From assembly GCA_965206445.1 (NCBI GenBank), contig CBDBJR010000002.1:520719-584718 (forward strand): a DNA stretch of 64,000 nucleotides. Direction: 5' to 3'. Source of the stretch: Candidatus Poriferihabitaceae bacterium. Lineage in GTDB: Bacteria; Pseudomonadota; Gammaproteobacteria; Arenicellales; Poriferihabitantaceae. Below are positions 3,957-63,624 of the stretch, one piece after another (within the stretch, counting starts at the first letter, position 1; each line of letters starts with the position of its first letter). A program made the translations under genes and the position numbers. The notes under the pieces were generated by a model. That model was given only the letters and a program-made list of their open reading frames with translations. It had not been told where the DNA came from and did no database searches.

Positions 3957-4014
3957 TGCAGTGGGGGAGTGTGATGGGTTGGATGCGAGTGGCGGCGGTT
4001 GTCAGCTTGCCGGC
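3673..4014. repeat. Direct repeat copy 1 (3' end of the MFS gene plus ~55 nt downstream)
   Basis: Near-identical to 5721-6051. Only a few substitutions and small indels are seen by eye. Confidence 0.9.
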
Positions 4015-4077
4015 GGTAGACAAATGCTTTGCAGCATTGGTCGACAAATTGCAGTGCGAAAAGTGGGGGGTAGAGGT

Positions 4078-5681: not shown

Positions 5682-5720
5682 CTCTCTTCCGATAACACAG
5701 TCCGTCACAACGCGACAACA

Positions 5721-6051: not shown

Positions 6052-6086
6052 CGAGATGATTGTCGTGTAGAAAATCGCCTCCACAC

Positions 6087-6611: not shown

Positions 6612-6771
6612 TTGATGAATTATACAGGTTTATAGAGATAACAAGACGCCAAAAAAAAATCCGTCAAAGGGGTGTATAAGCTCAGAAACGGTTGGCAGTT
6701 TGCTATAATGCCGCCTCGGTGCCTGGCTTAACCGGCACATTGCCGACAATGGAAATTTTATACTCAGACCA

Positions 6772-18332: not shown

Positions 18333-18396
18333 CGATCCGCTTATGGAGAATAAGGATATTAAAGAGTGGTAGATAGCTTTGTATTAAGCTAGAATT

Positions 18397-18426
18397 TTGA
18401 CTATGCTCATTTGCTTGTTGTACAAT
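18397..18426 (+). promoter_or_regulatory. Candidate sigma70 promoter for the DUF262 cassette
   Basis: -35 TTGACT (18397-18402), 18-nt spacer, -10 TACAAT (18421-18426). It lies ~40 nt upstream of ATG 18468. Confidence 0.4.
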
Positions 18427-18467
18427 AAAATTTGATACAGATTAAACGAGGGCTAAAAGGTGACATC

Positions 18468-19562
18468 ATGAATAAACCAGAAAATCTTAAATATATTGAG
18501 GAACAAACGTACATAGAAGATAGCAGTCCAGAGATACCGCCTCCTGACGTTGTCGCATACAATGAACTCCGGTCGTGTGCGGACCTCCATCGCATGGAGA
18601 CAAGTGGAATATTGAATATTCAACCTGAATTCCAACGCGAACTTGTATGGAAAAAGCCAGCTCAGACAAGATTTATCGATTCGCTAATTAAACAGCTTCC
18701 TATTCCAAGCATGTGCTTCAGTCTTGATTTTAAAGAACAAAAGTGGCAGGTAATCGATGGTCTCCAGAGAATGTCAGCAATTTGTAGTTTCCTTTCTGGA
18801 GAGCCGTGGAAATTATCACGTCTTGATGATATAGATAAAAAGATTTCAGGTCAGTCAGTCTCAGCTTTTCATAGTGATACATCTGATCTCCACCAATACT
18901 TGACTCGTGTTCAAAACCTGGCTCTCCCAATTACAGTAATACGGTGCGATTACTCTAATCAGTTGCATACCTATTATTTATTCACCATCTTTCATAGACT
19001 CAACACAGGAGGAATGAAGCTAAACAATCAAGAAATTCGGAACTGTATTTACTCAGGAGAACTGAATAATCTCTTAAAAAAGCTTGATCAATATCCGGAT
19101 TGGAAACGATTAAACCGTATTAAAAAGACAGTCGTATATCGATTCTCAAAACAGGAGCTTATTCTTCGCTTATTTGCATTTCACGATTCGTACAGGTCAT
19201 ACAATGGTCGATTGGCAAGTTTTTTAAACGAGTATATGAACAAGTATCGCAACTTACCAGAGAAGAAGAAAAATAAGAAACAAGACCTTTTTTGCCGCAC
19301 TGTAAATATAGTATACAGAAAGATATTCGAAGGAACTCCGCCACAGAAGCAATCTTTGTCCGTATTAGAAGCCTTACTTGTTGGTGTCTCTTTTAATCTG
19401 GATTATTTGGAGGCCATACCAAAAACAAAAATTATAAAACTGTACAAAGATCTTCTTAAACATGAAGAATTTTCGGAAGGAAAACTTATTGAGGGCCTCT
19501 CTGGCAAGCCACGAGTAATTGGTCGAATTGAAGCTGCACGTACGATATTTTCTGAAAAATGA
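18468..19562 (+). CDS. DUF262 (ParB-like/GmrSD N-terminal type) domain protein
   Basis: QPEFQRELVW and DGLQRM motifs (DUF262 FQR...W and DGQQR). No DUF1524/HNH tail. AT-rich. RBS aaaggtg. Confidence 0.75.
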   Translation: MNKPENLKYIEEQTYIEDSSPEIPPPDVVAYNELRSCADLHRMETSGILNIQPEFQRELVWKKPAQTRFIDSLIKQLPIPSMCFSLDFKEQKWQVIDGLQRMSAICSFLSGEPWKLSRLDDIDKKISGQSVSAFHSDTSDLHQYLTRVQNLALPITVIRCDYSNQLHTYYLFTIFHRLNTGGMKLNNQEIRNCIYSGELNNLLKKLDQYPDWKRLNRIKKTVVYRFSKQELILRLFAFHDSYRSYNGRLASFLNEYMNKYRNLPEKKKNKKQDLFCRTVNIVYRKIFEGTPPQKQSLSVLEALLVGVSFNLDYLEAIPKTKIIKLYKDLLKHEEFSEGKLIEGLSGKPRVIGRIEAARTIFSEK

Positions 19563-20053
19563 AAAACATTGAAAAGACGGAAATCGGTCAAAACCTAGAA
19601 ACTCTAAACATACTTTACACCAACAGTGCAAATAACAGAGAGGCTCTTTTTTACTCGAAACTTGCTGTGCTTGAACTTTGCGCGTGGCTTGAAGAAACCA
19701 TGGAAGAAGTGGTTCGGTCTTACGTTGTTCTTAATATAAAAAATAAAGAAAACCAAAATAGTATAGAAAACTCCATTATCAGACCAAATCATGGATTTGA
19801 CTATAAAGGTAATTTTCGGAAGATGCTTATTCGTGTTGTAGGGTTTCGAGGAATTGAGACTATGGAGGACGCAGCAGGTTCGGCTACAATCTATACTCTC
19901 GAAAGTACTACACGTACACTTAAGAAAACCAGAGACAGGCAAGTACACACTTATTTTAATACCACTATGAACTTGGAAGCCCCATCGATAATTATGGGAC
20001 ACTTTAATAATATGTTTCAAGCACTTGAGAAATTTCAGGATGCCATGAAATAA
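19559..20053 (+). CDS. Small HEPN-like protein (Rx4H motif), partner of DUF262
   Basis: 164 aa, all-helical by composition, with RDRQVH matching Rx4H near the C-terminal third. The start overlaps the DUF262 stop (ATGA). Confidence 0.45.
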   Translation: MKNIEKTEIGQNLETLNILYTNSANNREALFYSKLAVLELCAWLEETMEEVVRSYVVLNIKNKENQNSIENSIIRPNHGFDYKGNFRKMLIRVVGFRGIETMEDAAGSATIYTLESTTRTLKKTRDRQVHTYFNTTMNLEAPSIIMGHFNNMFQALEKFQDAMK

Positions 20054-20143
20054 GAATAGTTATAAAAAATTAGGATATTCTTTCAGGTTAAGGTTAATTA
20101 AATTAGTGAAAATAATAAGGCTAAAATAGCAAAGGTACTGAAA

Positions 20144-20446
20144 TTGCACCTCTATCCAAAATATAAAAATTCCATTGTTAAGTGGCTGATGGAAGCACCA
20201 GAGTATTCGAAAGTACGGCAGCTACGGGCTGTATCAGAGATGGGCGTCAGAAACGACGATAAACATTTCAGGGATAACTATGAGATTAGTTTTACTCGTT
20301 ATTTTTATAAGCCGCAGCCAATGCGGACGCTGGAAGAAATTCGGGCGGATATTCTGGCGTTGGAGCAGGAAAGTGGCGGGTTGGAAGCAATTATTGGGCG
20401 TGGAGAACTCAACATGAACTTGCTGGAGAAAATAAAAAATGACTAA
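20144..20446 (+). pseudogene. Chimeric scar: hsdS 5' stub fused to a copy of the hsdM 3' end
   Basis: N-terminal LYPKYKNSIVKWLMEAPEYSKVRQL resembles an HsdS N-terminus. 20279-20373 is near-identical to hsdM 18204-18298 (EISFTRYFYKPQPMRTLEEIRADILALE). Confidence 0.75.
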
Positions 20447-21896
20447 TGGCGCGCAAACATTCGACGACCACCAAAAAGGGATTCTGCTGAAACGGGCGGA
20501 ACCTGAAGTCAAGACTGATGAACCATGGGCAGATGACGCTTTAGATCGTAGTGAAGTGGCAAACGCGCTGACCAATCTTGTTTCGGGGCAGAAAGACCCG
20601 CTGGTTATAAGTCTGGATGGATACTGGGGAACAGGCAAAACATTTTTACTCAAGCGCTGGCAGGTGGAATTGGAAAAACAAGGCTTTCAGTCTATTTATT
20701 TCAATGCATGGGAAGACGACTTTTGCGACGATCCTCTTGTGGCCATCATAGGGCAACTATCAGCTAGCCTGGAAAAAGATTTTAAGAATATAGTAGATGA
20801 TATCAAAAAAGATATAGTACCTTTACTTGGAAAAATCCTTCTTAGCGTTATACACAATACCGCTGGTATAGATTTCGGTGGTGTCACTCTTAAAGAGCCC
20901 ACAGACTCGATTTTAGAAAAATATGCATCTCAAATAAAGCAGAAAAAAGAAATAAAAGAGCATTTGCAGAAAATATCAGACGAAGTAATGAAGAATACTA
21001 AGCAACCTTTGGTATTTATTATTGATGAACTTGATCGATGTCGCCCAACTTTCGCTATCGAGCTTTTGGAAAGAGTAAAACATATATTCGATATTCCCGG
21101 CATGGTTTTTGTTTTTGGTATCAATCAGGGCGAGCTGTGTTTAGCAATTAAATCAGTTTATGGGGACATTGATGCTGATACCTATCTTCGACGTTTTTTT
21201 GACATACCTTTATTATTGCCGAAAGCAAACATAGAGAATTTTTGTAGACATTTGATTGAGAAATATGAATTGGAAGAGTTTTTTTCGAAACTACGCATAA
21301 GTGCAAGTGACCCTATTCATCGGGAAGATTTTTATACTTTTAATACTTTCTTTCCTTCTTTCTATAATAATCTGGATTTGTCTCTTCGAGATGTTGATCA
21401 TTGTATCAGGGCATTTTCCTTTGTAGGAAAAAGTATTAAGAAAGGGCAAAAGATGTTTCCATTTCTTGTTGGCGCATTAATTGCCCTGCGAGTAAAAAAT
21501 CAGACCTGTTATCGAGATTTTATTACACAGAAATGTTTTGGAGCCGATGTTATGGATTACATCAATGAGGTGATGTCTGATGAAAATATAAATAGCAAAT
21601 TAGGAGACGCTCTCCGTGTTATAGAAATTATTTTGTATGTTACAGATCGTGGGCGCGGACGTGATTCTCTCGGACAATTAAGAATTTTTCTGGATGGCGA
21701 TGAGCCATCTCATCCAGAATATTTATCTAAAAAAATAAAAAAAATATGCAAAGAACAAGATTCAAATAAACAAATAATAGAGGCTTTTGATTTGCTGATA
21801 TCTGATAGCTGGGTTATCCGTGAAACTCCAGAGCTCAAGTATGTTTCCAGTTTGATTGAGCTTACTCAAATAACTACGCAGAGTAAGCCATGGTGA
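20439..21896 (+). CDS. KAP family P-loop NTPase
   Basis: Walker A in the KAP context (ISLDGYWGTGKTFLLKRW) and Walker B FIIDELDRC. 485 aa, AT-rich. Confidence 0.75.
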   Translation: MTNGAQTFDDHQKGILLKRAEPEVKTDEPWADDALDRSEVANALTNLVSGQKDPLVISLDGYWGTGKTFLLKRWQVELEKQGFQSIYFNAWEDDFCDDPLVAIIGQLSASLEKDFKNIVDDIKKDIVPLLGKILLSVIHNTAGIDFGGVTLKEPTDSILEKYASQIKQKKEIKEHLQKISDEVMKNTKQPLVFIIDELDRCRPTFAIELLERVKHIFDIPGMVFVFGINQGELCLAIKSVYGDIDADTYLRRFFDIPLLLPKANIENFCRHLIEKYELEEFFSKLRISASDPIHREDFYTFNTFFPSFYNNLDLSLRDVDHCIRAFSFVGKSIKKGQKMFPFLVGALIALRVKNQTCYRDFITQKCFGADVMDYINEVMSDENINSKLGDALRVIEIILYVTDRGRGRDSLGQLRIFLDGDEPSHPEYLSKKIKKICKEQDSNKQIIEAFDLLISDSWVIRETPELKYVSSLIELTQITTQSKPW

Positions 21897-22087
21897 AATT
21901 GCTTCCTTTCTCAGAATATGAAGATTCCATTGTTGGGTGGCTGATGGAAGTACCAGTGCATTGGAAAGTACAGCGGCTATGGATTGTCCTAAGGATGCGC
22001 ATCAGTAATTTAGACAAACACACTACGGATGGCGCGATTCCTGTTCGGCCCTGTAGCTTTGCTAAAAGGGTGATTTTTAACTGTTAG
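21890..22087 (+). pseudogene. hsdS 5' stub
   Basis: LLPFSEYEDSIVGWLMEVPVHWKVQRL parallels the N-terminus of the intact HsdS (KPYSKYKDSDVEWLGKISAHWKRL) and the stub at 20144. It is only 65 codons long. Confidence 0.65.
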
Positions 22088-22210: not shown

Positions 22211-22786
22211 GTGCAGCAACCAGTAATTGAAGAAAAAATTGTGCGTGAAAAAACTTTTAAAGCATTAATAATTGGAGTAGTTGCCTCAGTATTGGGAGGG
22301 ATTTTTCTGCTATATGGCACAGAGTACATTGTCAAACCTTTTTTGTGGCTTAAGTCTGCTATTCTATGGTCTTGGAACTTTTTGATTTCATCTCATTCTC
22401 TGCCCGGATGGGTTTTGCTGATTGTTTTTTTGTTTGCTTCTCTGTTTATTATTTTTGCAGTGATTTATTTTTTGGTGAAGATCGATAAAAATTCTGAATC
22501 TAAACATCTACTGTATACCAAAGATATTATGTTTGGAGCAATATGGCGATGGAAGTGGATGGGAAATCAAATATCTAATATTTGGTGCTATTGCCCTTAC
22601 TGTGACACAATGCTGGTTTATGATGAGCATTGGGGAGAAACATACTTTAGATGTGAGAATTGCAATAACTCTGTTATAGCTACTTTTGACTGCTCTAAAA
22701 ACCGAGCGATACGTAGAGTCGCGCATCAGATTGATAGAAAACTCCGGTCGGGTGAATTTAGAAAAATTATCACATCTAACCAATAA
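22211..22786 (+). CDS. Membrane protein with C-terminal zinc ribbon (hypothetical)
   Basis: 2-3 N-terminal TM helices, then CYCPYC...(17)...CENC. GTG start, uncertain. Confidence 0.45.
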   Translation: MQQPVIEEKIVREKTFKALIIGVVASVLGGIFLLYGTEYIVKPFLWLKSAILWSWNFLISSHSLPGWVLLIVFLFASLFIIFAVIYFLVKIDKNSESKHLLYTKDIMFGAIWRWKWMGNQISNIWCYCPYCDTMLVYDEHWGETYFRCENCNNSVIATFDCSKNRAIRRVAHQIDRKLRSGEFRKIITSNQ

Positions 22787-22796
22787 CAAATAACCC

Positions 22797-24083
22797 ATGA
22801 ATACTCATCTTAAACCTTACTCAAAATACAAAGACTCTGACGTTGAGTGGCTGGGTAAAATATCGGCACACTGGAAACGATTGCCGGGTCGTGTGTGCTA
22901 TCGGGAGAAAAAGTCACCAAATACCGGCCCCCAAATTGACACAGTGCTGTCACTCAGCTTCGGCAAGATTGTCATAAAGCCACCTGAAAAGTTACATGGG
23001 CTAGTCCCGACATCTTTCGAGACATACCAGTTAATTGAACCCAATGATATTGTCATCCGCCCAACAGATCTACAAAATGACTGGAACAGCCTCCGGTTTG
23101 GTTTGGCGAACACAACAGGCATTATCACATCTGCCTATATTTGCCTCCGCACGAGTTCTGTACTCACACCACAATACGGACACCTACTGCTTCATACCTA
23201 CGATTTGAAAAAAATATTTTATGGATTAGGCTCTGGTTTGCGACAAAATTTAGCTTGGCGTGACTTTAAATATTTACCTTGCTTAGTTCCACCCCTACTC
23301 GAACAAACCGCTATTGTCCGTTATCTTGATTATTTCGACCGGCGGATTCGGCGTTATATTGATGCCAAGCAAAAGTTGATCAAGCTGTTGGAGGAGCAGA
23401 AGCAGGTCGTCATTCACCGCGCCGTTACTCGGGGGCTTGATCCTGATGTTCCTCTTAAGCCCTCCGGTGTTGAATGGTTGGGGGAGGTGCCGGAGCATTG
23501 GGAAATACGGCGGCTAAAGCTTTTGGCGCAAATTAGGACTGGTGGACATGATACTGTGGACAGAGTGGAAGAAGGAGCGTACCCGTTTTTTGTCCGCTCT
23601 CAGAATATTGAGCGGATCAACAGTTATTCGTTCAACGGTGAGGCTGTATTGACTGCTGGTGATGGTGCAGGAGTCGCCAAGGTGTTTCATTACTTCGTCG
23701 GCAAGTTTGATTACCACCAACGAGTCTACAAGTTCAGTAATTTTAGAGAAATCACAGGAAAATACTTCTTCTACTTCTTTAGGAATACACTCCGGTTTGA
23801 AGCATTCCGAGAAACAGCAAAGTCAACCGTCGATTCACTTCGACTTCCAATGCTCCAGAACTTTCCTGTTCCATTACCACCGCATAAAGAACAGGAGAAG
23901 ATCGTTGAGGTTATTGAATCTGATACTGCCGACATTGATGCCACGATTGAACGCGCCCGCCGCGGAATCGACCTGCTGCAAGAATACCGCACCCGCCTGA
24001 TTGCCGACGTGGTTACCGGCAAACTCGACGTGCGTGAAGTGGCGGCGGCGTTGCCCGATGATCCGGCGCCGCTATCGGGCTAG
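22797..24083 (+). CDS. hsdS: Type I restriction-modification system, specificity subunit
   Basis: Two TRD halves, each introduced by an (S/D)xVEWLGxxxxHW block, with conserved coiled-coil spacers (LLEEQKQVVIHRAVTRGL; LLQEYRTRLIADVVTGKLDVRE). Confidence 0.88.
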   Translation: MNTHLKPYSKYKDSDVEWLGKISAHWKRLPGRVCYREKKSPNTGPQIDTVLSLSFGKIVIKPPEKLHGLVPTSFETYQLIEPNDIVIRPTDLQNDWNSLRFGLANTTGIITSAYICLRTSSVLTPQYGHLLLHTYDLKKIFYGLGSGLRQNLAWRDFKYLPCLVPPLLEQTAIVRYLDYFDRRIRRYIDAKQKLIKLLEEQKQVVIHRAVTRGLDPDVPLKPSGVEWLGEVPEHWEIRRLKLLAQIRTGGHDTVDRVEEGAYPFFVRSQNIERINSYSFNGEAVLTAGDGAGVAKVFHYFVGKFDYHQRVYKFSNFREITGKYFFYFFRNTLRFEAFRETAKSTVDSLRLPMLQNFPVPLPPHKEQEKIVEVIESDTADIDATIERARRGIDLLQEYRTRLIADVVTGKLDVREVAAALPDDPAPLSG

Positions 24084-24322
24084 TGCTGGCCGAATGCAGG
24101 CGCCATTGCGCATGAATTCGGTCAGATACACACTCCAGACATTCAGATAGCGGATTTTTTGCGGGTACATCCGCTTTCCGTCGGCACCGGGAAGCACAAT
24201 GGTGCTGCATTGCTCCTTCGGTGCCGGGCACGTTATAATCGACCTGACGAGACAGCCTTCGTCAACCGGAATACGCCATATTATTGATTTGAGTACGTTA
24301 GAGCAGGAATCGGGGGAACACC

Positions 24323-27300
24323 ATGCTTATTGTTAAACCCTATGGCAGGAGTGCCATAACCAAACCCGTTTCGGGGGAGTCTCGCAGAGTACTGCGTAAA
24401 CGCGATGGGGGTATCGATCGTGATTTCAAGGAGTTCTGCCGGGAACACCCCGATCTGGTTCTTGCCCAATGGATTTCTGTTGTCGATAAAATTGCCCGCA
24501 AACCGTCCGGTCGAGGCCAGCCGCCGGAAGCCCAGCGCAAGTTTCGCCAGGAGATTGGCGCAGTGCTTTGGCCGTATCTGACTTCAAAGGAGATATTGTC
24601 GCCGGAGTTGGAGCAGAAATTCTGGTCAAAGGTTCATCCCTATCCGGAGCCTGATAGCAAGGATAAGCCCAGGAAAGCCAAACCGAAAGTGGCTAAATCG
24701 CACCCGAAAAAGACCGGTGGCGAGGCCAAACCCGAGGGCAGGTGGTACAAACGCTTCCTGGGCGATGCGGAACCTGATAACGCGGTTCTCAGTGATCTGC
24801 CGGACAAAATCTTTGCGCATCTGTATGAAACGGAATACCGGATTGCGCCCACCCGCCCGAACAAATCCAAAGGCTTGATTGCCGCACGCGCCGAGTCAAT
24901 TTCCGGTAACCTGTTGCAGCGATCATCCCTGTCCGGGTGTGACTGGACTGAAGACGACGAGGAAGCATACGCCCGGGGCGGCAATGTCGCCGCAGAGATA
25001 AAGAGGAAGATCAAGGAACTGGAGGTGCCTGCAAAGGGTAAGAAGTCGCAGAGGGCATCCCTGCGTGATGTCGCTCCTGTGCTGTTCGGGCAATATGGGC
25101 GGCTGTTCCACGGCGAAAATGATACCGCGCTATCCGTCGCCGAGGCCGGGCAAAAACATCCCGGCCTCTTGGCATTGCATCAGGCGGTGAAAGAGGCGTA
25201 CAAGCGCCGTCTGTCCGGCCACAAATCTGCCCGGCATAAATCGGTTGCCGAAGTGCTGCCCGATAGCATGGACGCGCTTTTTAGGCTGGTTCATAGCGCC
25301 CGGCAGAATGCCCGGGTCAGCAATTTGATCCGAATCGGAAAGATTGCCCATTATGAAGCCGCCCCGAATAGTATCGTCGATGACTGGCCGGCAGATCGTC
25401 TTGCTGCCAGTTTGTATTGGACCAGCGATGGTCAGGCGGAAATCAAACGGACTGATGCGTTTGTCCGTGTCTGGCGCACGGCACTGGTGCATGCGGCCCT
25501 GACGCTGACTGATTGGGCTGACCCGGAAGGCAGGATTGCCGACGATATATTAATCAGCGACAGCAAGGAAGAAGTACTCGACATGCTTGATAGTGCTGCT
25601 TTCGACCGCAAGGCATCTGTCCTGTTTGGCAGCCGAGCGCAGGATCTGACATGTCTGCCGCTTGAGAAGAAAAAAGAATGCTGGTCAGCCATTTGCACAG
25701 CAGTAGCACAGCTCCGTAACAGCAGTTTCCATTTCAAGGGGATTGACCGGTTTGCACAATCCATCAATGACGCTGCCACGGGCGATTTCCAGTTCGATTT
25801 TCTTGTCGACCTGTACAAACAGGACCGGGCTGCCCGGTTGAAATATCTGGTCGAAACACTGCAAGGTGTCAAGGCAGACCGGCACCTCGACAAGGGGCAA
25901 TTCAAACAGCTCATTCTGGAGATAAGCACCGGTTCACCCCGCATGATTCCGTTGCCGCGATTTCAGCGGGTGTTGGTGCGTTACAGGGACGCATTCTGGT
26001 CAAAAGAATCTTCTGTTGTGAAACTGCCTGCACCCGGGAATCGTCAGAAAATGGAAGAGTCCCCGGCGCTTCGCTGCCAGTACACATGCCTGAAACTGCT
26101 CTACGAGCGCGCTTTTCCGGCCTGGCTCAAAGACAGTGATACGGGCACATTGAGACGCTGGATTGACCGCGCCGTTAAGCGCGCCACCTCGGATGCACAA
26201 AAGATCAATCGTGATGCGTCGGCTGTTGCGCGCGCTACCGATATAATCTGCCTGCATGACGGCGACACGATTGCTACTTTCCTTGACCGTCTGGCGGCAG
26301 AGACGGCGACGGAAATCCGCGTACAAAAGGGATACGACCCTGATCCCGAAGCCGCCCGCAAGAAGTCGGCTTACCTGGACAATCTGAATTGTGACGTGAT
26401 GCTCCAGGCGTTTGGCGACTTTCTCAATGAGAAGAAATTCGACTGGTTGCTTGAACTGCAGGACGGTCAAGAGGATATGCCGCGATATGATCTGCCTGAG
26501 CTGCCCCCGAACGAAACCGGGATACAAGCATGGCAGCGTGTTCTTTATATTGTTTTGCACCTCGTCCCGGTTGGTGAAGTTTCCCGCCTGCTCCATCAGA
26601 TTCAAAAGTGGAACATTCTTACCCTGAAATCTGCGCACGGGGGCCGGAGTCGGCAGCCTGATGCGGCACGTTCGGATGAAGCTTTTGCCCCCTTGACGGA
26701 TGCTGACTGTCTGTTCGAGGTGCTCACGCTGTATCTCGATATGCACGACGCCAAGTTCGAGGGCGGCGAGAGCCTGATGAGAGGCGATGCGCTGCCTCGC
26801 TGGTTTGAATCTGAACAGGATTGCAAAAAGATTTTTCCCGAACAAGATGGGGCGCTTGATGACGCGCACCTGCCGCTTCGCGGTCTGCGGGAAATGCAGC
26901 GGTTTGGCGCCTTGAAATGCCTGGAACCGATTTTCGAAGCCCATAAGATCACCGGCGAGGAAGTGTCCGGGTATTTGGAATTGAATAGAGGGGAGGGCGG
27001 TGAATCGAAAATCGTGCGCGCCCAGAAGGTGCGTGAGACGCTGCACGCGGATTGGACCAGCAAGCCCAAAGATTTTGACAAAGACAAGAAGAAGCAGCGG
27101 TGTTATTGGGATGCGCTGGCAACGGTCACGCAGCACCGGCATTTTGCTAACCGCGTCCACCTGATTGATCATGTTCAGCTGTATTATCTCCTGATGCAGA
27201 TTTTGGGCAGGCTGGTTGATTTTGCCGGTTTGTGGGAGCGCGACCTTTATTTCACAGCGCTTGGCCTGATGATCGAGAAAAATGAGCAGCCGGATTCGAT

Positions 27301-27907
27301 ATTCAAGCCGAAAGGGATTAAGCGCCTGAAACAAGGCAGGATTGTGGAGGCGCTTCGTGAAATTATTGATGAGGATACCGGGCGGGAGATAAAACGGGAG
27401 ATAGAGCGACTCTTTGATTCGAATTTCACTTCCCGAGACAGAAATATCCGTATCAGGAACAATTTCATGCACTTCAATATGCTGCGCTCAGGGCGAAACC
27501 CCGACGCCGGTACAGCGGCAGTGCCCCTGAACCTGACCGCACTGGTAAACGACTGCCGATCACTTATGGGTTATGATCGCAAGCTGAAGAATGCAGTTTC
27601 TAAATCTGTGAAGGATTTATGTGCGCGTGAAAAGCTCGATTTGTGCTGGAAAACCGATCCCAGGCATTGTCTGACCCAGGCCACCGTCAACACGAAACAG
27701 GCCCGGCACCTCAAGACAAAATGTATCAGGGAGAATCTGTGCGGAATACACTACATAAAGATGGCTGCGGATCTTTTTGCCGGTAGAGAATTGTCCAGCA
27801 AGGATGTCACGTCAAAAGGCTTTGATGAAGCTGAACAGGAAAAGCAAAAAAATCGGCCAAAAAAGCGAGAAAAAAACGCCAGACAAGGCGGTCAACGAAG
27901 AAGATGA
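24323..27907 (+). CDS. cas13a: Cas13a (C2c2)-like type VI-A CRISPR effector, two HEPN RNase motifs
   Basis: 1194 aa. Rx4H motifs RNSSFH (R465/H470) and RNNFMH (R1045/H1050), spaced as in characterised Cas13a. It is directly followed by a co-oriented array whose repeat resembles Cas13a repeats. Confidence 0.8.
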   Translation: MLIVKPYGRSAITKPVSGESRRVLRKRDGGIDRDFKEFCREHPDLVLAQWISVVDKIARKPSGRGQPPEAQRKFRQEIGAVLWPYLTSKEILSPELEQKFWSKVHPYPEPDSKDKPRKAKPKVAKSHPKKTGGEAKPEGRWYKRFLGDAEPDNAVLSDLPDKIFAHLYETEYRIAPTRPNKSKGLIAARAESISGNLLQRSSLSGCDWTEDDEEAYARGGNVAAEIKRKIKELEVPAKGKKSQRASLRDVAPVLFGQYGRLFHGENDTALSVAEAGQKHPGLLALHQAVKEAYKRRLSGHKSARHKSVAEVLPDSMDALFRLVHSARQNARVSNLIRIGKIAHYEAAPNSIVDDWPADRLAASLYWTSDGQAEIKRTDAFVRVWRTALVHAALTLTDWADPEGRIADDILISDSKEEVLDMLDSAAFDRKASVLFGSRAQDLTCLPLEKKKECWSAICTAVAQLRNSSFHFKGIDRFAQSINDAATGDFQFDFLVDLYKQDRAARLKYLVETLQGVKADRHLDKGQFKQLILEISTGSPRMIPLPRFQRVLVRYRDAFWSKESSVVKLPAPGNRQKMEESPALRCQYTCLKLLYERAFPAWLKDSDTGTLRRWIDRAVKRATSDAQKINRDASAVARATDIICLHDGDTIATFLDRLAAETATEIRVQKGYDPDPEAARKKSAYLDNLNCDVMLQAFGDFLNEKKFDWLLELQDGQEDMPRYDLPELPPNETGIQAWQRVLYIVLHLVPVGEVSRLLHQIQKWNILTLKSAHGGRSRQPDAARSDEAFAPLTDADCLFEVLTLYLDMHDAKFEGGESLMRGDALPRWFESEQDCKKIFPEQDGALDDAHLPLRGLREMQRFGALKCLEPIFEAHKITGEEVSGYLELNRGEGGESKIVRAQKVRETLHADWTSKPKDFDKDKKKQRCYWDALATVTQHRHFANRVHLIDHVQLYYLLMQILGRLVDFAGLWERDLYFTALGLMIEKNEQPDSIFKPKGIKRLKQGRIVEALREIIDEDTGREIKREIERLFDSNFTSRDRNIRIRNNFMHFNMLRSGRNPDAGTAAVPLNLTALVNDCRSLMGYDRKLKNAVSKSVKDLCAREKLDLCWKTDPRHCLTQATVNTKQARHLKTKCIRENLCGIHYIKMAADLFAGRELSSKDVTSKGFDEAEQEKQKNRPKKREKNARQGGQRRR

Positions 27908-27972
27908 AACATATTTTTTTTTATTGCAAAAATCAGGATTTTCTTTATGTATTATTGCGTTATCAGTTAGCT
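27908..27972 (+). promoter_or_regulatory. CRISPR leader (AT-rich) of array 1
   Basis: 65-nt AT-rich stretch between the cas13a stop and the first repeat. The degenerate repeat is at the far end of the array. It is duplicated at 29860-29924. Confidence 0.6.
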
Positions 27973-28869
27973 GTTGAAGATGACCCCCATATGAAGGGGG
28001 ACTACACCGACAGATGTTCCCAATCCCACCGATTCTGCAGTTGAAGATGACCCCCATATGAAGGGGGACTACACCTAAAACGGCGTTATATCGCATCTGA
28101 CGGCCGTTGAAGATGACCCCCATATGAAGGGGGACTACACCCGTAATCCAGTTGGATCAAATTCTATTGCTGTTGAAGATGACCCCCATATGAAGGGGGA
28201 CTACACCTGCGTCCGACTGCACCAATTGCGCGGTCAGGTTGAAGATGACCCCCATATGAAGGGGGACTACACCTGCGTCCGACTGCACCAATTGCGCGGT
28301 CAGGTTGAAGATGACCCCCATATGAAGGGGGACTACACCCTTGCAAGGATGATGTTGTTTTGCTCGTTTGTTGAAGATGACCCCCATATGAAGGGGGACT
28401 ACACCCACAACGTCTTTGCGGTGCTCGTTCGCTTTCGTTGAAGATGACCCCCATATGAAGGGGGACTACACCTGATCAACCCGCCGATTAAATTCCGGCG
28501 TCGTTGAAGATGACCCCCATATGAAGGGGGACTACACCAGCGCGGACGGTGTATAGAAGGTGGTCGTAGTTGAAGATGACCCCCATATGAAGGGGGACTA
28601 CACCTGTATGGGCGTGATACTGCGCATTTGCACCGTTGAAGATGACCCCCATATGAAGGGGGACTACACCATCACCACCATTATTTCGCTGGCCGGCCTG
28701 GTTGAAGATGACCCCCATATGAAGGGGGACTACACCCGGATCCATTGACTCCATGCCTTCCCTATAGTTGAAGATGACCCCCATATGAAGGGGGACTACA
28801 CCCAAGACGTTATTTTTGTAATCTGTTTTTCAAGTTGAAGATAACCCCCATATAAAGAGGAACCACACG
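27973..28869 (+). CRISPR. CRISPR array 1: 14 x 36-nt repeat (gttgaagatgacccccatatgaagggggactacacc), 13 spacers of 30-31 nt
   Basis: All repeats were located by eye at 27973, 28040, 28106, 28172, 28238, 28304, 28370, 28437, 28503, 28569, 28635, 28701, 28767 and 28834. The last repeat is degenerate. Spacers 4 and 5 are identical. Confidence 0.97.
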
Positions 28870-29779
28870 ACGTAGCCAGAAAAGCAGGAACGAGCACTAC
28901 TTTGTTGCTCTCTGTGAGCCGAACAGCGTTACGGAGAAGATTGCCGCTGAGCGGCCAGCGGAGTATGGTGTCAGTTAGTTGTATGGCGAGGTGCGGGATT
29001 ACAACCGCGCACGCTCATCGACTTAAACCTTCCGGGGTGGAATGGTTAGGGGAGGCGCCGGCGCATTGGGACGTTTTTCGCCGCAAAACACAGGCGGCAA
29101 ACCGTACTGAGCGAATATCCATACATGAAAACACATCGTCCATCATCATACGGAATCCCGAGGCTGGCCACCGAAGCCGGCCCTGTTGGCCATCCCGGGC
29201 CGGCTGATTTGCCGGGGAAATGCGCACTCCATTGTCGCCATCAGCGTATAAATTTGTTTACCCGTTGTTTAGTTTTCGAGAATTTCTCGGAAAAAAATAC
29301 CCTGAATACAGTCAGTTAGGTCTGAAAAGTTGTTTACCCGTTGTTTTATTATCGGTCGATACAACCAGATATAACCTATCGTAGCGGGCAGGAGTCAATC
29401 GTACATCTGGCAGCGGATTGACACGGATTCTGTTGCGTGGGCAGAGCAAAACAGCAAGCTGTTGGGCGGTTACCTTATCAAATGCCGGTTCACGTGCTGT
29501 CGATGCCGGTGCCAACCCGGATCAATCAGGTAAGATTAATCGGACGGCTGTGCGGGCAAAACAGGGGACATCCTGTCAATATCGCAAACATAAATATCGC
29601 AAACGGGTGGAATGGCTTATGGCGGAAAGTTTTCCGTGGGATATGATTGCGCGTATTGGCGTACACTCGCGCAATGCTGGTGATCAGGCCACGGCGGCTC
29701 AAGCCGTCGGGCAGAAACCGACAGTCCAGATTTTCTCTGAGTGGTATTATTAGCGCGGGGGCAAACATGATCCATTTTA
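28870..29779. repeat. Post-array segment, copy 1 (non-coding; contains an hsdS-like fragment)
   Basis: Homologous to 30426-31336. 29021-29071 encodes LKPSGVEWLGEAPAHWD, matching the HsdS central block. It ends with the first 5 codons of the macro gene (ATGATCCATTTTAAA, ATG at 29767). Confidence 0.85.
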
Positions 29780-29924
29780 AAGCTGAACAGGAAAAGCAAA
29801 ATAATCGGCCAAAAAAGCGAGAAAAAAACACCAGACAAGGCGGTCAACGAAGAAGATGAAACATGTTTTTTTTTATTGCAAAAATCAGGATTTTCTTTAT
29901 GTATTATTGCGTTATCAGTTAGCT
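29780..29924 (+). pseudogene. Duplicated cas13a 3' end (~26 codons) plus leader copy
   Basis: Near-identical to 27828-27972. Together with the macro start codons it forms a chimeric 30-codon ORF, 29767-29859 (MIHFKAEQEKQNNRPKKREKNTRQGGQRRR). Confidence 0.85.
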
Positions 29925-30425
29925 GTTGAAGATGACCCCCATATGAAGGGGGACTACACCGCTCTCCACATGATCTAACTTACCATTAAAGTTGAAGATG
30001 ACCCCCATATGAAGGGGGACTACACCCCAAGTTCGGTAGTATTTTTAATCCAGAAGGTTGAAGATGACCCCCATATGAAGGGGGACTACACCAGTGTCGA
30101 TTGGATTAGTCGGCCATGTCATAGTTGAAGATGACCCCCATATGAAGGGGGACTACACCAGTGTCGATTGGATTAGTCGGCCATGTCATAGTTGAAGATG
30201 ACCCCCATATGAAGGGGGACTACACCTCAACCGAGCGGTATGTGACCGGGCTTGCGGTTGAAGATGACCCCCATATGAAGGGGGACTACACCAGCTGAAC
30301 CGCAATATGAGCGTGTCCGTCAGTTGAAGATGACCCCCATATGAAGGGGGACTACACCACGGGCGCGCGCGTCCCCTGATTTATCAAGAGTTGAAGATGA
30401 CCCCCATATAAAGGGGAACTACACG
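29925..30425 (+). CRISPR. CRISPR array 2: 8 x the same 36-nt repeat, 7 spacers of 30-31 nt
   Basis: Repeats at 29925, 29991, 30057, 30124, 30191, 30257, 30323 and 30390. The last repeat is degenerate. Spacers 3 and 4 are identical. No spacer is shared with array 1. Confidence 0.97.
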
Positions 30426-31322
30426 ACGTAGCCAGAAAAGCAGGAAGGAGCACTACCTTGTTGCTCTCTGTGAGCCGGGCAGCGTTACGGAGAAGGCTGC
30501 CGCTGAGCGCCCAGCGGGCTATGGTGTCAGTTAGTTATATGGCGAGGTGCGAGATTACAACCGCGCACGCTCATCGCCTTAAACCTCCCGGGGTGGCGTG
30601 GTTGGGGGAGGCGCCGGCGCATTGGGACGTTTTTCGCCGCAAAACACCGGCGGCAAACCGTACTGAGCGAGTATCCATACATGAAAACACATCGTCCATC
30701 ATCATACGGAATCCCGAGGCTGGCCACCGAAGCCGGCTCTGTCGGCCATGCCGGGCCGGCTGATTTGCCGGGGCAATGCGCACGCCATGGTCTCCATCAG
30801 CGTATAAATTTGTTTATACGTTGTTTAGTTTTCGAGGATTTCTCAGAAAAAAATACCCTGAATACAGGCAGTTAGGTCTGAAAAATTGTTTACCCGTTGT
30901 TTTATTATCGGCCGATACAACCAGATATAACCTATCGTAGCGGGCAGGAGTCAATCGTACATCTGGCAGCGGATTGACACGGATTCTGTTGCGTGGGCAG
31001 AGCAAAACAGCAAGCTGTTGGGCGGTTACCTTATCAAATGCCGGTTCACGTGCTGTCGATGCCTGTGCCGACCCGGATCAATCAGGTAAGATTAATCGGA
31101 CGGCTGTGCGGGCAAAACAGGGGACATCCTGTCAATATCGCAAACATAAATATCGCAAACGGGTGGAATGGCTTATGGCGGAAAGTTTTCCGTGGGATAT
31201 GATTGCGCGTATTGGCGTACACTCGCGCAATGCTGGTGATCAGGCCACGGCGGCTCAAGCCGTCGGGCAGAAACCGACAGTCCAGATTTTCCCTGAGTGG
31301 TATTATTAGCGCGGGGGCAAAC
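30426..31322. repeat. Post-array segment, copy 2
   Basis: Homologous to 28870-29766. The last ~340 nt show only 3 mismatches; the first ~530 nt are clearly more diverged. Confidence 0.85.
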
Positions 31323-31805
31323 ATGATCCATTTTAAAACGGGCAATATCCTGACCGAAGACGCCGAAGCAATCGTCAACACGGTCAACTGCGTCGGCGTC
31401 ATGGGCCGCGGTATCGCGCTGCAATTCAAACAGAGTTTTCCCGACAACTTCAAGGCGTATGCTGATGCGTGTAAGCAGAAAGCAGTACAGCCTGGGCGCA
31501 TGTTTATCTTTGCAACCGGGCAAACCACCAACCCCCGCTATATCATCAATTTTCCGACCAAGCGGCACTGGCGCGAAATGAGCCGGATGGAAGATATTGA
31601 GGCCGGGTTGTCGGCGCTGGTCAAAGAGATTGAAAAACGCAGGCTCCGTTCAATCGCGATTCCGCCCCTTGGCAGCGGTCTGGGCGGGCTGGACTGGGCG
31701 CAGGTTCGCCCGCGCATAGAAAAAGCGCTCCGGGGCTGTGACGACCTTCGGGTCATTGTCTATACACCGCACCCGGTACCGAAACCGGACAAGATGGCGT
31801 ATTAA
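31323..31805 (+). CDS. Macro domain (ADP-ribose binding/hydrolase) protein
   Basis: 160 aa. IVNTVNCVGVMGRGIALQFK and IAIPPLGSGLGGLDW match macro-domain signature blocks. The start is ATG 31323. Confidence 0.75.
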   Translation: MIHFKTGNILTEDAEAIVNTVNCVGVMGRGIALQFKQSFPDNFKAYADACKQKAVQPGRMFIFATGQTTNPRYIINFPTKRHWREMSRMEDIEAGLSALVKEIEKRRLRSIAIPPLGSGLGGLDWAQVRPRIEKALRGCDDLRVIVYTPHPVPKPDKMAY

Positions 31806-31844: not shown

Positions 31845-34800
31845 ATGCCCACCGACACCACCGAACGCGGTCTTGAGCGCCTGATCTGCGCGGCGCTGAC
31901 CGGCCACCCCGGCGATGCCGACTCAGCCGGCGGCACAGACTACAAAGTTGCCCTGCGCCCGACGCACTATTCCACCGTTTGGCTGTACGGCGATGCCAGC
32001 GATTACAACCGCGAATACTGTGTGGACTTGCGGCAGTTCTCGGCTTTCCTGCAGGCAACGCAGCCGCAGGTCGCCGCGGCGCTCGCCCTTGACGAGGACG
32101 GCGCGGCGCGGCGCAGCTTCCTGGCGCGACTGGAAGGCCAGATTTCCCGGCGCGGCGTGATTGATGTCTTGCGCAACGGCGTAAAACACGGCCCGCACCA
32201 GCTCGATCTCTTTTACGGCACGCCGTCGCCGGGCAACGAGAAAGCCCGGACGCTGTATGCCGACAACCGCTTTTCGGTGACCCGGCAGTTGCGCTACAGC
32301 AACGACGCCACGCGGCTGGCGCTTGACCTGGGGCTGTTTGTCAACGGCCTGCCGGTGGCAACGTTTGAGCTCAAGAACAGCCTGACCAAACAAACCGCGG
32401 CGGATGCGGTGCGGCAGTACCGGCGCGACCGCGACCCGCGTGAAAAGCTGTTCGCGTTTGGCCGCTGCGTGGTGCATTTTGCGGTGGATGAGAACGAGGT
32501 GTATTTTTGCACCCACCTCACCGGGAAAACGTCCTGGTTCCGGCCTTTCAATCGCGGCTGTAACGACGGCGCCGGCAATCCGCTCAACCCCAACGGCCTC
32601 AAGACCGACTACCTGTGGCGCGAGGTGCTGACCCGTCGGCGCCTTACCGATATCCTCGAAAACTACGCCCAGGTCGTCAAACTCAAAGACAACACCACCG
32701 CGACCACGAAAAAGGTGCAGATCTGGCCGCGCTACCACCAGCTCGACGTGGTGCGGCAACTGCTGGCGGATGTCAGGGCAAACGGGGCGGGGCGGCGTTA
32801 TCTGATCCAGCACTCGGCGGGCAGCGGCAAATCCAACTCGATCGCGTGGCTGGCGCATCAACTGATCGGCCTGGAGAAAGACGGCGGGACGGTGTTCGGT
32901 TCGATCATCGTCGTCACCGACCGGGTGCTGCTTGACCGCCAGATCCGCGACACCATCCGGCAGTACGCCCAGGTGAACGCGACCGTAGGCCACGCCGAGC
33001 GCTCGGGCGATTTGCGCAGGTTGATTGAAAGCGGCAAGCAGATCATCATCTCGACGGTGCAAAAATTCCCGTTCATCCTTGACGAGATCAGCAGCCAGCA
33101 ACGCGACCGCCGGTTTGCCATCATCATCGACGAGGCGCATTCAAGCCAGGGCGGCAAAACCTCGGCGGCGATTTCGCAGGCGCTTGCGCACGACGGTGAA
33201 GCGGGGGAGGAGGACACCTTTGAGGATCGGATCAACCGCTTGATAGCGGCGCGCCGGCTGCTGCCCAATGCCAGCTATTTCGCCTTCACCGCCACGCCCA
33301 AGGGGAAAACGCTGGAGGTCTTCGGCCGGCCGGAGCCGCAGGCGGACGGCACAACCCGACACCTGCCGTTCCATACCTACACGATGAAACAGGCCATTCA
33401 GGAAGGCTTTATTCTGGACGTGCTGGCACACTATACCCCGGTCAACAGCTACTATCGGCTGGTCAAAACGATAGAACCCGATCCGCAATTCGACACCCGG
33501 CGCGCGCAGAAAAAACTGCGCCGCTACGTGGAGGGGCATGAGCACGCTATCCGGCTCAAAGCGGAGATCATGGTGGATCATTTTCATCAGCAGGTGTTCG
33601 GTCCGCGCCGGGTCGGTGGGCAGGCGCGGGCGATGGTGGTGACCGGCGGCATCGCGCAGGCAATCCGGTACTTCCACGCCATCAGCGACTACCTGACCGA
33701 GTGCAACCGCCCGTATCGCGCCATCGTCGCGTTCTCCGGCGAGCACGATTACGGCGGCGCGAATGTGACCGAGGCATCGCTCAACGGCTTCGCCTCGAAC
33801 AAAATTGCCGATTGCATCCGGGCCGAGCCGTATCGTTTTCTGGTCTGCGCCGACAAGTTCCAGACCGGCTATGATGAACCGCTGCTGCACACGATGTACG
33901 TCGACAAAACCCTTTCCGGCATCAAGGCGGTGCAGACACTGTCGCGCCTCAACCGGGCGCATCCGAAAAAACACGATGTCTTTGTGCTCGATTTTATGAA
34001 CCAGACCGAGCTGATTCGAGAGGCGTTTTCCGACTATTATCGCGCGACGATTTTGTCCGCCGAAACCGACCCCAACAAACTGCACGATCTGCAAGCGGAC
34101 CTGGACGGCGCGCAGGTGTACTCGCAGCAGCAGATCGACGATTTCGCCGAGCGCTACCTCGGCGGGGCGAAACGCGAGCAGCTCGACCCGCTGCTCGACG
34201 CCTGCGTGGCGGTCTATCTCAACCAGCTCGACGAGGACGGCCAGGTGGATTTCAAGGGCAAGGCCAAGGGCTTCGTGCGCACCTATGGCTTCCTTTCCTC
34301 GCTGCTGCCCTATACCAACCTGCAGTGGGAGAAGCGCTCGATCTTTCTGAACTTCCTGATCTCCAAACTGCCGGCGCCGCAAGAGGCGGATCTCTCCAGG
34401 GGCATCCTCGATGCGATCGACATGGACAGCTATCGGGCGGAGAAACAGGCGATGCAGCAGATCCGGATTGCGGACGAGGACGCCGAGATCGACCCGGTGC
34501 CGGCCAGCGCCGGCGGCCACCGCACCGAGCCCGAGTTGGATCGGCTGTCAAACATCATCCGGAGCTTCAACGAGCACTTCGGCAACATCACCTGGGGGGA
34601 CACCGACCGGGTGATGCAGCTGATCACCGAAACCGTGCCCGTACAGGTGGCGAAGAACCGCGCTTACCGGAACGCACAACAGAACTCGGACAAGCGCAAT
34701 GCCCGCATCGAACACAGCAAGGCACTGTCGCGCGTGATGACCGCGATAATGAGAGACGATACCGAGTTGTTCCGCCAATTCATGGACAACCCGGACTTCA

Positions 34801-34856
34801 AGCGCTGGATGACCGACACGGTGTTTGACCTCACCTACCAAAGAGGCGCGCCCTGA
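31845..34856 (+). CDS. hsdR: Type I restriction enzyme, restriction/helicase subunit
   Basis: 1003 aa. N-terminal PD-(D/E)xK block (LDLGLFVNGLPVATFELKN), Walker A HSAGSGKSNS, DEAH box IIIDEAHSSQGG and a helicase C region. Confidence 0.9.
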   Translation: MPTDTTERGLERLICAALTGHPGDADSAGGTDYKVALRPTHYSTVWLYGDASDYNREYCVDLRQFSAFLQATQPQVAAALALDEDGAARRSFLARLEGQISRRGVIDVLRNGVKHGPHQLDLFYGTPSPGNEKARTLYADNRFSVTRQLRYSNDATRLALDLGLFVNGLPVATFELKNSLTKQTAADAVRQYRRDRDPREKLFAFGRCVVHFAVDENEVYFCTHLTGKTSWFRPFNRGCNDGAGNPLNPNGLKTDYLWREVLTRRRLTDILENYAQVVKLKDNTTATTKKVQIWPRYHQLDVVRQLLADVRANGAGRRYLIQHSAGSGKSNSIAWLAHQLIGLEKDGGTVFGSIIVVTDRVLLDRQIRDTIRQYAQVNATVGHAERSGDLRRLIESGKQIIISTVQKFPFILDEISSQQRDRRFAIIIDEAHSSQGGKTSAAISQALAHDGEAGEEDTFEDRINRLIAARRLLPNASYFAFTATPKGKTLEVFGRPEPQADGTTRHLPFHTYTMKQAIQEGFILDVLAHYTPVNSYYRLVKTIEPDPQFDTRRAQKKLRRYVEGHEHAIRLKAEIMVDHFHQQVFGPRRVGGQARAMVVTGGIAQAIRYFHAISDYLTECNRPYRAIVAFSGEHDYGGANVTEASLNGFASNKIADCIRAEPYRFLVCADKFQTGYDEPLLHTMYVDKTLSGIKAVQTLSRLNRAHPKKHDVFVLDFMNQTELIREAFSDYYRATILSAETDPNKLHDLQADLDGAQVYSQQQIDDFAERYLGGAKREQLDPLLDACVAVYLNQLDEDGQVDFKGKAKGFVRTYGFLSSLLPYTNLQWEKRSIFLNFLISKLPAPQEADLSRGILDAIDMDSYRAEKQAMQQIRIADEDAEIDPVPASAGGHRTEPELDRLSNIIRSFNEHFGNITWGDTDRVMQLITETVPVQVAKNRAYRNAQQNSDKRNARIEHSKALSRVMTAIMRDDTELFRQFMDNPDFKRWMTDTVFDLTYQRGAP

Positions 34857-34963: not shown

Positions 34964-35053
34964 TGGCGGAGAGGGTGGGATTTGAACCCACGAATCCCGT
35001 GAAGGATTGCCGGTTTTCGAGACCGGTGCATTCGACCACTCTGCCACCTCTCC
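34964..35053 (-). tRNA. tRNA-Ser (anticodon CGA)
   Basis: The reverse complement folds as a class II tRNA: 7-bp acceptor stem GGAGAGG/CCTCTCC, anticodon stem CCGGT/ACCGG with loop CTCGAAA, long variable arm, T-arm GGGTTCAAATCCC and encoded CCA. Confidence 0.9.
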
Positions 35054-63613: not shown

Positions 63614-63624
63614 GGAGAAATCAT

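Follow-up and report, generated by a model that had tools for sequence, protein, structure and literature searches.

Type I restriction-modification (R-M) operons are known to harbour other defence genes. Genes of the PrrC family, for instance, are nearly exclusively embedded in type I R-M loci (Payne et al. 2024), and PrrC is triggered by inhibition of the Hsd complex. The toxin-antitoxin pair DarTG has been published between hsdS and hsdR for many bacteria (PMC5179494, PMC12255303), the TgvAB defence genes of Vibrio cholerae are embedded in a type I R-M system as well (PMC11411939), and embedded defence has been surveyed more generally under the term "guilt-by-embedding" (bioRxiv 10.1101/2024.01.29.577857). 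The RNA-guided effector Cas13a of Rhodobacter capsulatus (RcCas13a) causes growth arrest via cleavage of target and collateral RNA (PMC8776769, PMC11089165). Here we analyse a 64,000-nt stretch of Candidatus Poriferihabitaceae bacterium (GCA_965206445.1, contig CBDBJR010000002.1, positions 520,719 to 584,718; hereafter the window), in which a type I R-M operon carries a cas13a gene with two CRISPR arrays in the gap separating hsdS from hsdR. We consider it likely, with a probability of about 0.8, that this is a self-contained type VI-A cassette, carried by a widespread type I R-M operon together with further, independent defence cargos (at least four in all), and that its position reflects a cargo hotspot and not dependence on HsdMSR.

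The predicted cas13a product (Table 1) matched the NCBIfam model NF038188 with 722 bits against a cut-off of 150 (E = 1.5e-216), its residues 1-1152 aligning with positions 1-1192 of 1192 and thus spanning the whole profile, and it matched the PADLOC Cas13a model at 7.8e-202. Among solved structures, the top match was R. capsulatus Cas13a (7os0, E = 7e-98, over the N-terminal domain, helical and HEPN regions), followed by the Cas13a proteins of Leptotrichia and Listeria. Because of these NCBIfam, PDB and PADLOC matches, the gene encodes a full-length Cas13a. It adds to the R. capsulatus-like clade, which comprises more than 200 homologues, a member that is new. The profile comparison bears out the initial annotation, a model's reading of the letters, which had proposed Cas13a and located two HEPN motifs, RNSSFH at residues 465-470 and RNNFMH at residues 1045-1050. 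The tetrad R465, H470, R1045 and H1050 is unchanged across an alignment of 23 homologues and pairs with the catalytic R464, H469, R1052 and H1057 of RcCas13a (positions from PMC8776769). Furthermore, R1086, N1090 and H1115 align with R1085, N1089 and H1113, the three RcCas13a residues required for processing of the CRISPR RNA precursor (pre-crRNA) (PMC8776769); R1086 and N1090 are invariant and H1115 is nearly invariant among the 23 homologues, and the separate processing site is kept at the level of these residues. The K/R-rich segments that had also been singled out form a loop after residue 107 and a C-terminal tail beyond the Cas13a profile; both vary across homologues, and nothing points to their importance.

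Arrays of a 36-nt repeat, GTTGAAGATGACCCCCATATGAAGGGGGACTACACC, lie 3' of the gene and on its strand, as had been noted before, with 13 and 7 exact copies, and for 20 exact copies of a 36-mer a chance origin is impossible. When folded, the repeat forms a 5-bp CCCCC/GGGGG stem closing a loop of 7 nt, followed on the 3' side by a flank of 8 nt, and the orientation of the arrays fits the 5' repeat handle predicted for a crRNA. The repeat presumably resembles the repeats of Lbu and Rca Cas13a; in an Rfam search of the whole window a tRNA was the sole match, and no CRISPR-DR family was matched. Spacers measure 30-31 nt, and 18 are unique over both arrays. The repeats are homogeneous, yet spacer sets differ between relatives of 90-97% identity. 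Array 2 shares four leader-distal spacers in the same order with array 2 of the related locus L002 (related loci are numbered with the prefix L) and differs from it in the leader-proximal ones, and L001, whose Cas13a is 97% identical, has zero spacers in common with the window. Such differences at the leader end are the pattern expected of leader-end acquisition, and the arrays therefore appear to turn over. In addition, one spacer per array is tandemly duplicated (28208-28303, TGCGTCC...GGTCAG; 30093-30190, AGTGTCG...GTCATA), and the array of L060 contains a duplicated two-spacer block; these duplications suggest repeat-mediated slippage or recombination inside the arrays.

Comparison with close relatives delimits the cassette. 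The loci L001, L002 and L058 have the layout of the window at the same chromosomal site, and L059 and L063 (Cas13a 82% and 77.5% identical, HsdR 87% and 79% identical) have it in other neighbourhoods; in L063 the order is cas13a, array, full-length darT (223 aa), full-length darG (354 aa) and hsdR. Nesting is hence found in six loci (window, L001, L002, L058, L059, L063) with Cas13a identities of at least 77%, which, judged by their sequences, descend from a single operon lineage. The loci L001, L002, L058, L060, L061 and L063 come from one sample (ERZ25069326) and are not independent ecological observations. In L003, L060 and L061 (Cas13a 78-82%), the cassette stands outside any hsdS-hsdR pair, between two unrelated type I gene sets and upstream of hsdM. 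The DNA homology of these three loci to the window begins exactly at 24063 and ends at the terminal repeat at ~28880, which leaves a cassette of ~4.8 kb (24063 to ~28880) made up of an upstream region, cas13a, leader and array. The upstream region is conserved in two different contexts with sharp boundaries and carries a TATAAT (24234-24239) that is invariant in seven loci; we infer that the TATAAT region acts as the cas13a promoter. The last 21 nt of hsdS, with its stop codon, which form the left end of the cassette in L003, L060 and L061, are a scar, because the HsdS end, PAPLSG*, resembles the C-termini of the same HsdS family in operons without cas13a, and the placement seen in L060 derives from that of the window. 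Synonymous divergence (dS) between the window and L063 is 0.23 for cas13a, 0.45 for hsdR and 0.82 for darG, and between the window and L059 it is 0.14, 0.25 and 0.33, respectively; as cas13a has the lower dS in the same pairs, this suggests that exchange of the cassette postdates the divergence of the frames.

Two further observations concern these relatives. At positions 1-860 of L060, ~9 kb 5' of the intact cassette, a DUF1223 gene is joined to a degraded second copy of the hsdS 3' end and the cas13a 5' end, the relic of an earlier window-type junction. L062, whose Cas13a is 52% identical, adjoins conjugation genes with no R-M genes in view.

A scan of GTDB species-representative genomes yielded 55 Cas13a loci, mostly labelled Alphaproteobacteria, Binatia and Nitrospirales, and the flanks of 44 distant loci (~30-44% identity) were censused with Pfam, open reading frames (ORFs) being called mechanically and the top 25 families listed. 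Upstream hsdS combined with downstream hsdR occurred in 0 of the 44, and tblastn of the window Hsd proteins against the genome-collection loci likewise found zero hsdS-cas13a-hsdR layouts. In the upstream 3.5 kb (140 ORFs), Methylase_S was not among the top 25 families listed and N6_Mtase occurred twice, the commonest families being addiction-module antidote (5) and M78/HTH (4). Downstream ORFs of at least 331 aa (n = 81) included Eco57I-type methylase (8), N6_Mtase (4), HsdM_N (3), Methylase_S (2) and ResIII (2); among the smaller downstream ORFs (n = 126), nothing was recurrent within the top 25 families listed. Among the families so listed, neither Cas1 nor Cas2 recurred around the 44 homologues, Cas2 appearing once. 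Assorted R-M types are thus frequent beside cas13a, as expected of defence islands, and the specific nesting is absent. In the reverse direction, Cas13a was found in 0 of 48 JGI metagenome loci of the HsdR family of the window. An intact darT-darG pair lies between hsdS and hsdR in four of the 48 (L078, L081, L090, L099); in many others hsdS abuts hsdR, and still others hold 0.7-2 kb of different cargo. In L064, the slot contains SLFN/AlbA, HATPase_c_4 and PIN genes. The hsdS-hsdR gap of this operon family is therefore a general cargo slot, holding DarTG, other cargo or nothing.

The distant homologues show some recurrent neighbours of their own. Several (L004-L053) adjoin Mu-like prophage genes (Portal_Mu, gpT, Gp36, Phage_tail_S) or integrases, in 8 of the 44 loci an Eco57I-type methylase gene or a type IIG-like one follows at most 5 kb downstream, and five related large proteins of Eco57I/type IIG-like kind recur in the alphaproteobacterial loci L043, L011, L008, L013 and L024.

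Several results weigh against an autonomous and active cassette. A consensus promoter and terminator scan called neither the TATAAT region nor a leader promoter. The 18 unique spacers had zero matches in 50,697 GenBank phage records, four of them had zero matches in IMG/VR, and none matched the window or the fetched loci outside the arrays. Moreover, cas1 was not found among the listed Pfam matches (E < ~1e-22) of 57 window ORFs, a listing that would probably not show a weaker cas2 match, and cas1 and cas2 are absent from the gene lists of the close relatives. The ratio dN/dS of cas13a, about 0.5, is high and could indicate relaxed constraint rather than arms-race diversification. Finally, every subclade member with at least 77% identity belongs to a type I R-M cluster or adjoins one, and in the flank census such a preference is inseparable from shared ancestry, which leaves some room for it to be genuine. 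A decaying relic, i.e. a non-functional cas13a-CRISPR locus hitch-hiking with the R-M operon in a rearranging island, would agree with the lack of a detected cas1 and the raised dN/dS, and also with the darT pseudogene, the truncated darG, the hsd fragments and duplications throughout the region, and the deleted second cas13a copy in L060. We nevertheless regard this explanation as improbable: the 3.6-kb ORF is open in seven diverged relatives (dS up to 0.23) with dN/dS values of 0.28-0.59, below neutral, 7 of 7 catalytic and processing residues are kept, and the repeats are perfectly homogeneous whereas the spacers differ between relatives of 90-97% identity in the leader-end pattern. The type VI-A system is, on these grounds, probably functional; as to the supply of spacers, our guess is that another CRISPR system in the genome provides it in trans.

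The nesting of cas13a between hsdS and hsdR is real, and from it the initial annotation had raised the possibility of a PrrC-like genetic or physical coupling to the R-M system as a layered or back-up defence. In one version of this idea, Cas13a would be tied to HsdMSR and unleashed on anti-restriction inhibition; in another, it would be co-regulated as a wired back-up. The slot indeed corresponds to the position of prrC in EcoprrI, the order hsdS-cas13a-...-hsdR is kept in six loci of three neighbourhoods (window/L001/L002/L058; L059; L063), and L003, L060 and L061 likewise have the cassette among type I genes. However, the six loci count as one event, since they share one ancestral operon (HsdR 79-99% identical), and the cassettes of L003, L060 and L061 are not enclosed by hsdS and hsdR but precede an unrelated hsdM, with the scar of the original hsdS still attached. 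The recurrent synteny on which the initial annotation had made its idea depend is confined to the six loci of at least 77% identity in one operon lineage, and it does not extend to the distant homologues (0/44, with Methylase_S not listed for the 140 upstream ORFs) or to other operons with the same HsdR family (0/48). In addition, there is no PrrC/RloC homology, Cas13a being the sole family matched in Pfam and NCBIfam; Cas13a has a complete trigger of its own in crRNA and target RNA, RcCas13a works without an Hsd partner (PMC8776769, PMC11089165), and the cassette comes with its own conserved upstream region. The proposed coupling is therefore unsupported, and we hold it to be highly improbable. 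Just as little credence is given to a functional link behind the recurrent placement near type I R-M and DarTG, be it an RNA-level back-up co-regulated or guarded by Hsd or a HicAB-like cooperation with macro/DarTG; only if such an improbable coupling were true would the locus represent a new mechanism.

The segment between cas13a and hsdR consists largely of duplicated and decayed material. The second array is evidently the product of a 1.95-kb tandem duplication, the unit of which runs from cas13a codon 1170, through codon 1194, the leader, an array, a remnant of hsdS and a pseudogene of darT, into the initial 15 nt of darG. The last 25 cas13a codons are 98% identical in both units, the junction carries an AA microhomology, and the end of the locus as first annotated (31337) is the end of copy 2. 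The duplication is old and retained, as twin arrays are also present in L001, L002 and L058 (Cas13a 97, 90 and 83% identical); a chimeric 30-codon ORF at the junction is probably its by-product. Both darT pseudogenes retain aa 84-108 (frame-shifted and with a stop) and aa 121-218 of the 223-aa DarT, so that a full-length DarT ADP-ribosyltransferase was not encountered in the window, where only these two partial copies exist. Likewise, DarG is reduced in the window to its macro domain, 73% identical to the N-terminus of the L063 protein (354 aa), and the C-terminal DarT-binding domain was not found there. Purifying selection acts on the macro-only darG (dN/dS of 0.12-0.30 in comparisons with L001, L002, L059 and L063), and the cell may retain this orphan ADP-ribose hydrolase for a role of its own, e.g. 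against incoming DarT-like toxins. A pair of direct repeats of 29 nt, AAATTTGTTTACCCGTTGTTTAGTTTTCG and a variant separated from it by 76 nt, lies just 5' of each darT pseudogene (29250-29354 and 30806-30910) and could be an operator or the remnant of a promoter. The least probable explanation, in which Cas13a is partnered with DarTG as in the Cas13a-HicAB "CCTA" arrangement and the R-M operon is incidental, can draw on the consecutive cas13a, array, intact darT and intact darG of L063, on toxin-antitoxin genes being reported as common cas13a neighbours (PMC13448076), on addiction-module and HTH/M78 genes as the commonest upstream neighbours in our census and on the selection acting on the macro-only darG, but cas13a and the arrays persist in the window and the loci closest to it although darT there is dead and the DarT-binding half of darG is missing, DarTG fills the slot in Cas13a-free operons and preceded Cas13a there, and the cassettes of L003, L060 and L061 have no darTG.

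The autonomous cassette thus shares its operon with other cargo. The hsdM, hsdS and hsdR genes form an intact, co-oriented cluster (Pfam, NCBIfam), and HsdR belongs to a very widespread family, being 75-79% identical to homologues in other genomes, with a homologue plateau at 74-75%. The gene order is hsdM, PD-T4-2, PDC-S20, hsdS, cas13a with two arrays, two darT pseudogenes, macro-only darG and hsdR. The GC content amounts to 59-62% in hsdM, hsdR and the backbone, 38-42% in the cargo at 18-24 kb and 50-55% in cas13a with its arrays. Between hsdM and hsdS, L058 has the KAP NTPase only, L001 the KAP NTPase with a DNA methylase and a HATPase, and L002 PD-T4-2 with the KAP NTPase. The hsdM 3' and hsdS 5' fragments in the window are read as scars of recombination between related operons with different cargo. 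The locus displays the marks of embedded defence cassettes: genes on the same strand between hsd genes, cargo varying among homologous operons, lower GC and scars of hsd fragments.

Some features of this cargo were recorded beside the main comparison. The arrangement at 18204-22060 suggests a serial fusion of M-cargo-S segments, similar to the hsdM 3' remnant that follows cargo in the metagenome locus L071. In L059 (7795-9825) and L064 (4958-7198), hsdS encodes an additional NADAR (NAD and ADP-ribose) domain, fused to the N-terminus, which is of note as the DarTG/macro genes, also acting on ADP-ribose, share those operons.

Table 1. Coordinates of the annotated features in the window, in order of their start positions
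Feature	Positions	Strand	Size	Evidence or remark
hsdM, methyltransferase subunit	16359-18332	+		Pfam HsdM_N and N6_Mtase; 80% identical to L064 HsdM; the mechanically called ORF begins at 16248, homologue alignments at 16359
PD-T4-2 A	18432-19562	+		DUF262/GmrSD_N; PADLOC PD-T4-2_A 1e-154, full length
PD-T4-2 B	19559-20053	+		HEPN-like; PADLOC PD-T4-2_B 2.6e-48, full length
hsdS 5'-like scar	20139-20265	+		73% to 21894-22020; tblastn with L064 HsdS
hsdM 3'-end copy (scar)	20279-20383	+		88% to 18204-18308; tblastn with L064 HsdM
KAP-family P-loop NTPase, PDC-S20 candidate	20439-21896	+		Pfam KAP_NTPase 3.9e-37; PADLOC PDC-S20 7.7e-109
hsdS 5'-like scar before the 191-aa ORF	21894-22060	+
ORF just 5' of hsdS	22211-22786	+	191 aa	no Pfam/PADLOC family; related DNA in L059 and L063
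hsdS, specificity subunit	22797-24083	+		two target-recognition domains; Pfam Methylase_S in two stretches
Left end of the cas13a cassette	24063-24322	+		last 21 nt of hsdS and 240-nt conserved upstream region; seven-locus alignment
cas13a, predicted type VI-A effector	24323-27907	+	1194 aa	NCBIfam NF038188, PADLOC Cas13a and PDB 7os0 matches
Tandem-duplication unit, copy 1	27830-29781	+	1.95 kb	repeats 27828-28009/29780-29961 (98%) and 28833-29132/30389-30688 (93%)
Leader of array 1, A+T-rich	27908-27972	+		sequence; copy before array 2 at 98% identity
CRISPR array 1	27973-28869	+	13 spacers	13 exact repeats and a degenerate terminal repeat
hsdS-like remnant, 3' of array 1	28956-29153	+		tblastn with L064 HsdS; 50-nt match to hsdS 23454-23503
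darT pseudogene, copy 1	29350-29753	+		Pfam DarT 101-201 of 201; NCBIfam toxin_DarT; tblastn with L063 DarT
Chimeric ORF at the duplication junction	29767-29859	+	30 codons	darG start codon in frame with the cas13a C-terminal tail
Tandem-duplication unit, copy 2	29782-31337	+		twin-array structure also in L001, L002 and L058
CRISPR array 2	29925-30425	+	7 spacers	7 exact repeats and a degenerate terminal repeat
hsdS-like remnant, second copy	30512-30709	+
darT pseudogene, copy 2	30921-31309	+		tblastn with L063 DarT
Truncated darG, macro domain only	31323-31805	+		between array 2 and hsdR; NCBIfam antitoxin_DarG 1-158 of 338
hsdR, restriction/translocase subunit	31845-34856	+		Pfam HSDR_N, SWI2_SNF2, ResIII, T1R_D3-like
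tRNA-Ser(CGA)	34964-35053	-		directly after hsdR, right edge of the island

In our model of an autonomous cassette in a cargo slot, the ancestral layout in this Hsd family would have been hsdS-darT-darG-hsdR, and the cassette would have entered between hsdS and darT in one lineage. Later, darT would have become a pseudogene and DarG would have been cut back to the macro domain, the second leader and array would have arisen by a tandem duplication of 1.95 kb, and cargo between hsdM and hsdS would have been stacked through recombination of related operons, leaving the hsdM 3' and hsdS 5' scars. In the cell, the arrays would be transcribed and, by homology, Cas13a would cut the pre-crRNA at the HEPN2-side site R1086/N1090/H1115; as suggested by RcCas13a, this cleavage would be metal-independent and fall a few nucleotides 5' of the stem (PMC8776769, PMC11089165). 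The resulting crRNA, a 5' repeat handle with a 30-nt spacer, would base-pair with an invader transcript, and this pairing would activate the composite HEPN site R465/H470/R1045/H1050, leading to cleavage of target and bystander RNA and to growth arrest. Meanwhile, the type I enzyme would work separately on unmodified DNA, and PD-T4-2 and the KAP NTPase would act by their own routes, making up a layered but independent defence.

We regard the locus as an ordinary type VI-A system whose place is uncommon but can be accounted for. The window offers a natural example of a type I R-M operon serving as a scaffold, in which the conserved frame genes hsdM and hsdR surround fast-changing inserts. The 4.8-kb Cas13a and array appear as a compact mobile unit that displaced an older DarTG module, and their spacers turn over with no cas1 detected in the window or near the close relatives. 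For work on Cas13, the cassette could be useful as a further R. capsulatus-like system that has clear limits and defined repeats for its crRNAs but no cas1 detected beside it.

The host is proteobacterial and GC-rich, as had been remarked, and all named homologues of the backbone CysNC gene are from Pseudomonadota; such a host is, however, not atypical, as related loci are mostly labelled Alphaproteobacteria, Binatia and Nitrospirales and R. capsulatus Cas13a is the member studied best. Among species-representative genomes, the nearest one with a Cas13a of the window type is L003 (OZ242209.1), a metagenome-assembled genome labelled Dehalococcoidia, with a Cas13a 82% identical and cassette DNA ~85% identical; either the cassette crossed between phyla or the assembly is mislabelled. 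Elsewhere in the window, a second defence cluster of variable GC occupies 30-8000, with fragments of a type III restriction enzyme (30-872, 863-1582) and a PDC-M03A candidate at 3961-4938, PDC-M03B being matched as well among the window ORFs. The right end (60000-64000) is low in GC (42-46%), carries a ZorD/DpdE-like SNF2 helicase fragment (62135-63613) and probably forms the margin of a further defence island.

Among described effectors, RcCas13a (PDB 7OS0) is the closest counterpart, as its HEPN tetrad and three processing residues match those of the window protein one-to-one, and in both cases two arrays lie near the gene in a GC-rich host. Their sequence similarity is limited, with three separate aligned stretches against 7os0, and whereas cas1 adjoins the locus in R. 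capsulatus (PMC11089165), in the window cas1 was not found among the listed matches. Unlike in R. capsulatus, the arrays of the window arose from tandem duplication and the locus lies within a type I R-M operon. The latter feature is reminiscent of EcoprrI-PrrC, where a gene for a collateral-type RNase likewise resides within a type I (IC) hsd operon and the outcome is abortion or dormancy, as would be predicted for the window. PrrC, however, has no sequence relationship to the window Cas13a, and Cas13a homologues, in contrast to PrrC, are hardly ever embedded and respond to an RNA-guided trigger of their own; a family-wide embedding in type I R-M as for PrrC was not found for Cas13a, with 0 of 44 distant homologues and one shallow lineage.

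The frame itself, hsdM-hsdS-darT-darG-hsdR, is that of the RRDM island of enteropathogenic Escherichia coli (EPEC) (PMC12255303, PMC5179494), and intact examples of this DarTG type occur within the HsdR family of the window in L078, L081, L090, L099 and L063. In the window, by contrast, darT is a duplicated pseudogene, darG is macro-only and the Cas13a cassette has been added upstream. An M48 peptidase, a feature of the EPEC island, was absent among the annotated ORFs downstream of hsdR, and inspection of the small ORFs upstream of hsdM brought up no convincing RptR-like regulator, no profile search having been made. The Cas13a-HicAB "CCTA" loci resemble the window in that Cas13a and arrays are interleaved with toxin-antitoxin genes (PMC13448076), but here the module is DarTG and degraded. 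Similar in organization are TgvAB and other embedded cassettes, in which independent defence genes lie between hsd genes on the same strand with variable cargo, PD-T4-2 and PDC-S20 being typical representatives. In a limited literature search, we met no paper in which a CRISPR-Cas effector together with its arrays is described as embedded cargo of type I R-M. The arrangement is a new instance of a described phenomenon, the embedding of defence systems in type I R-M operons.

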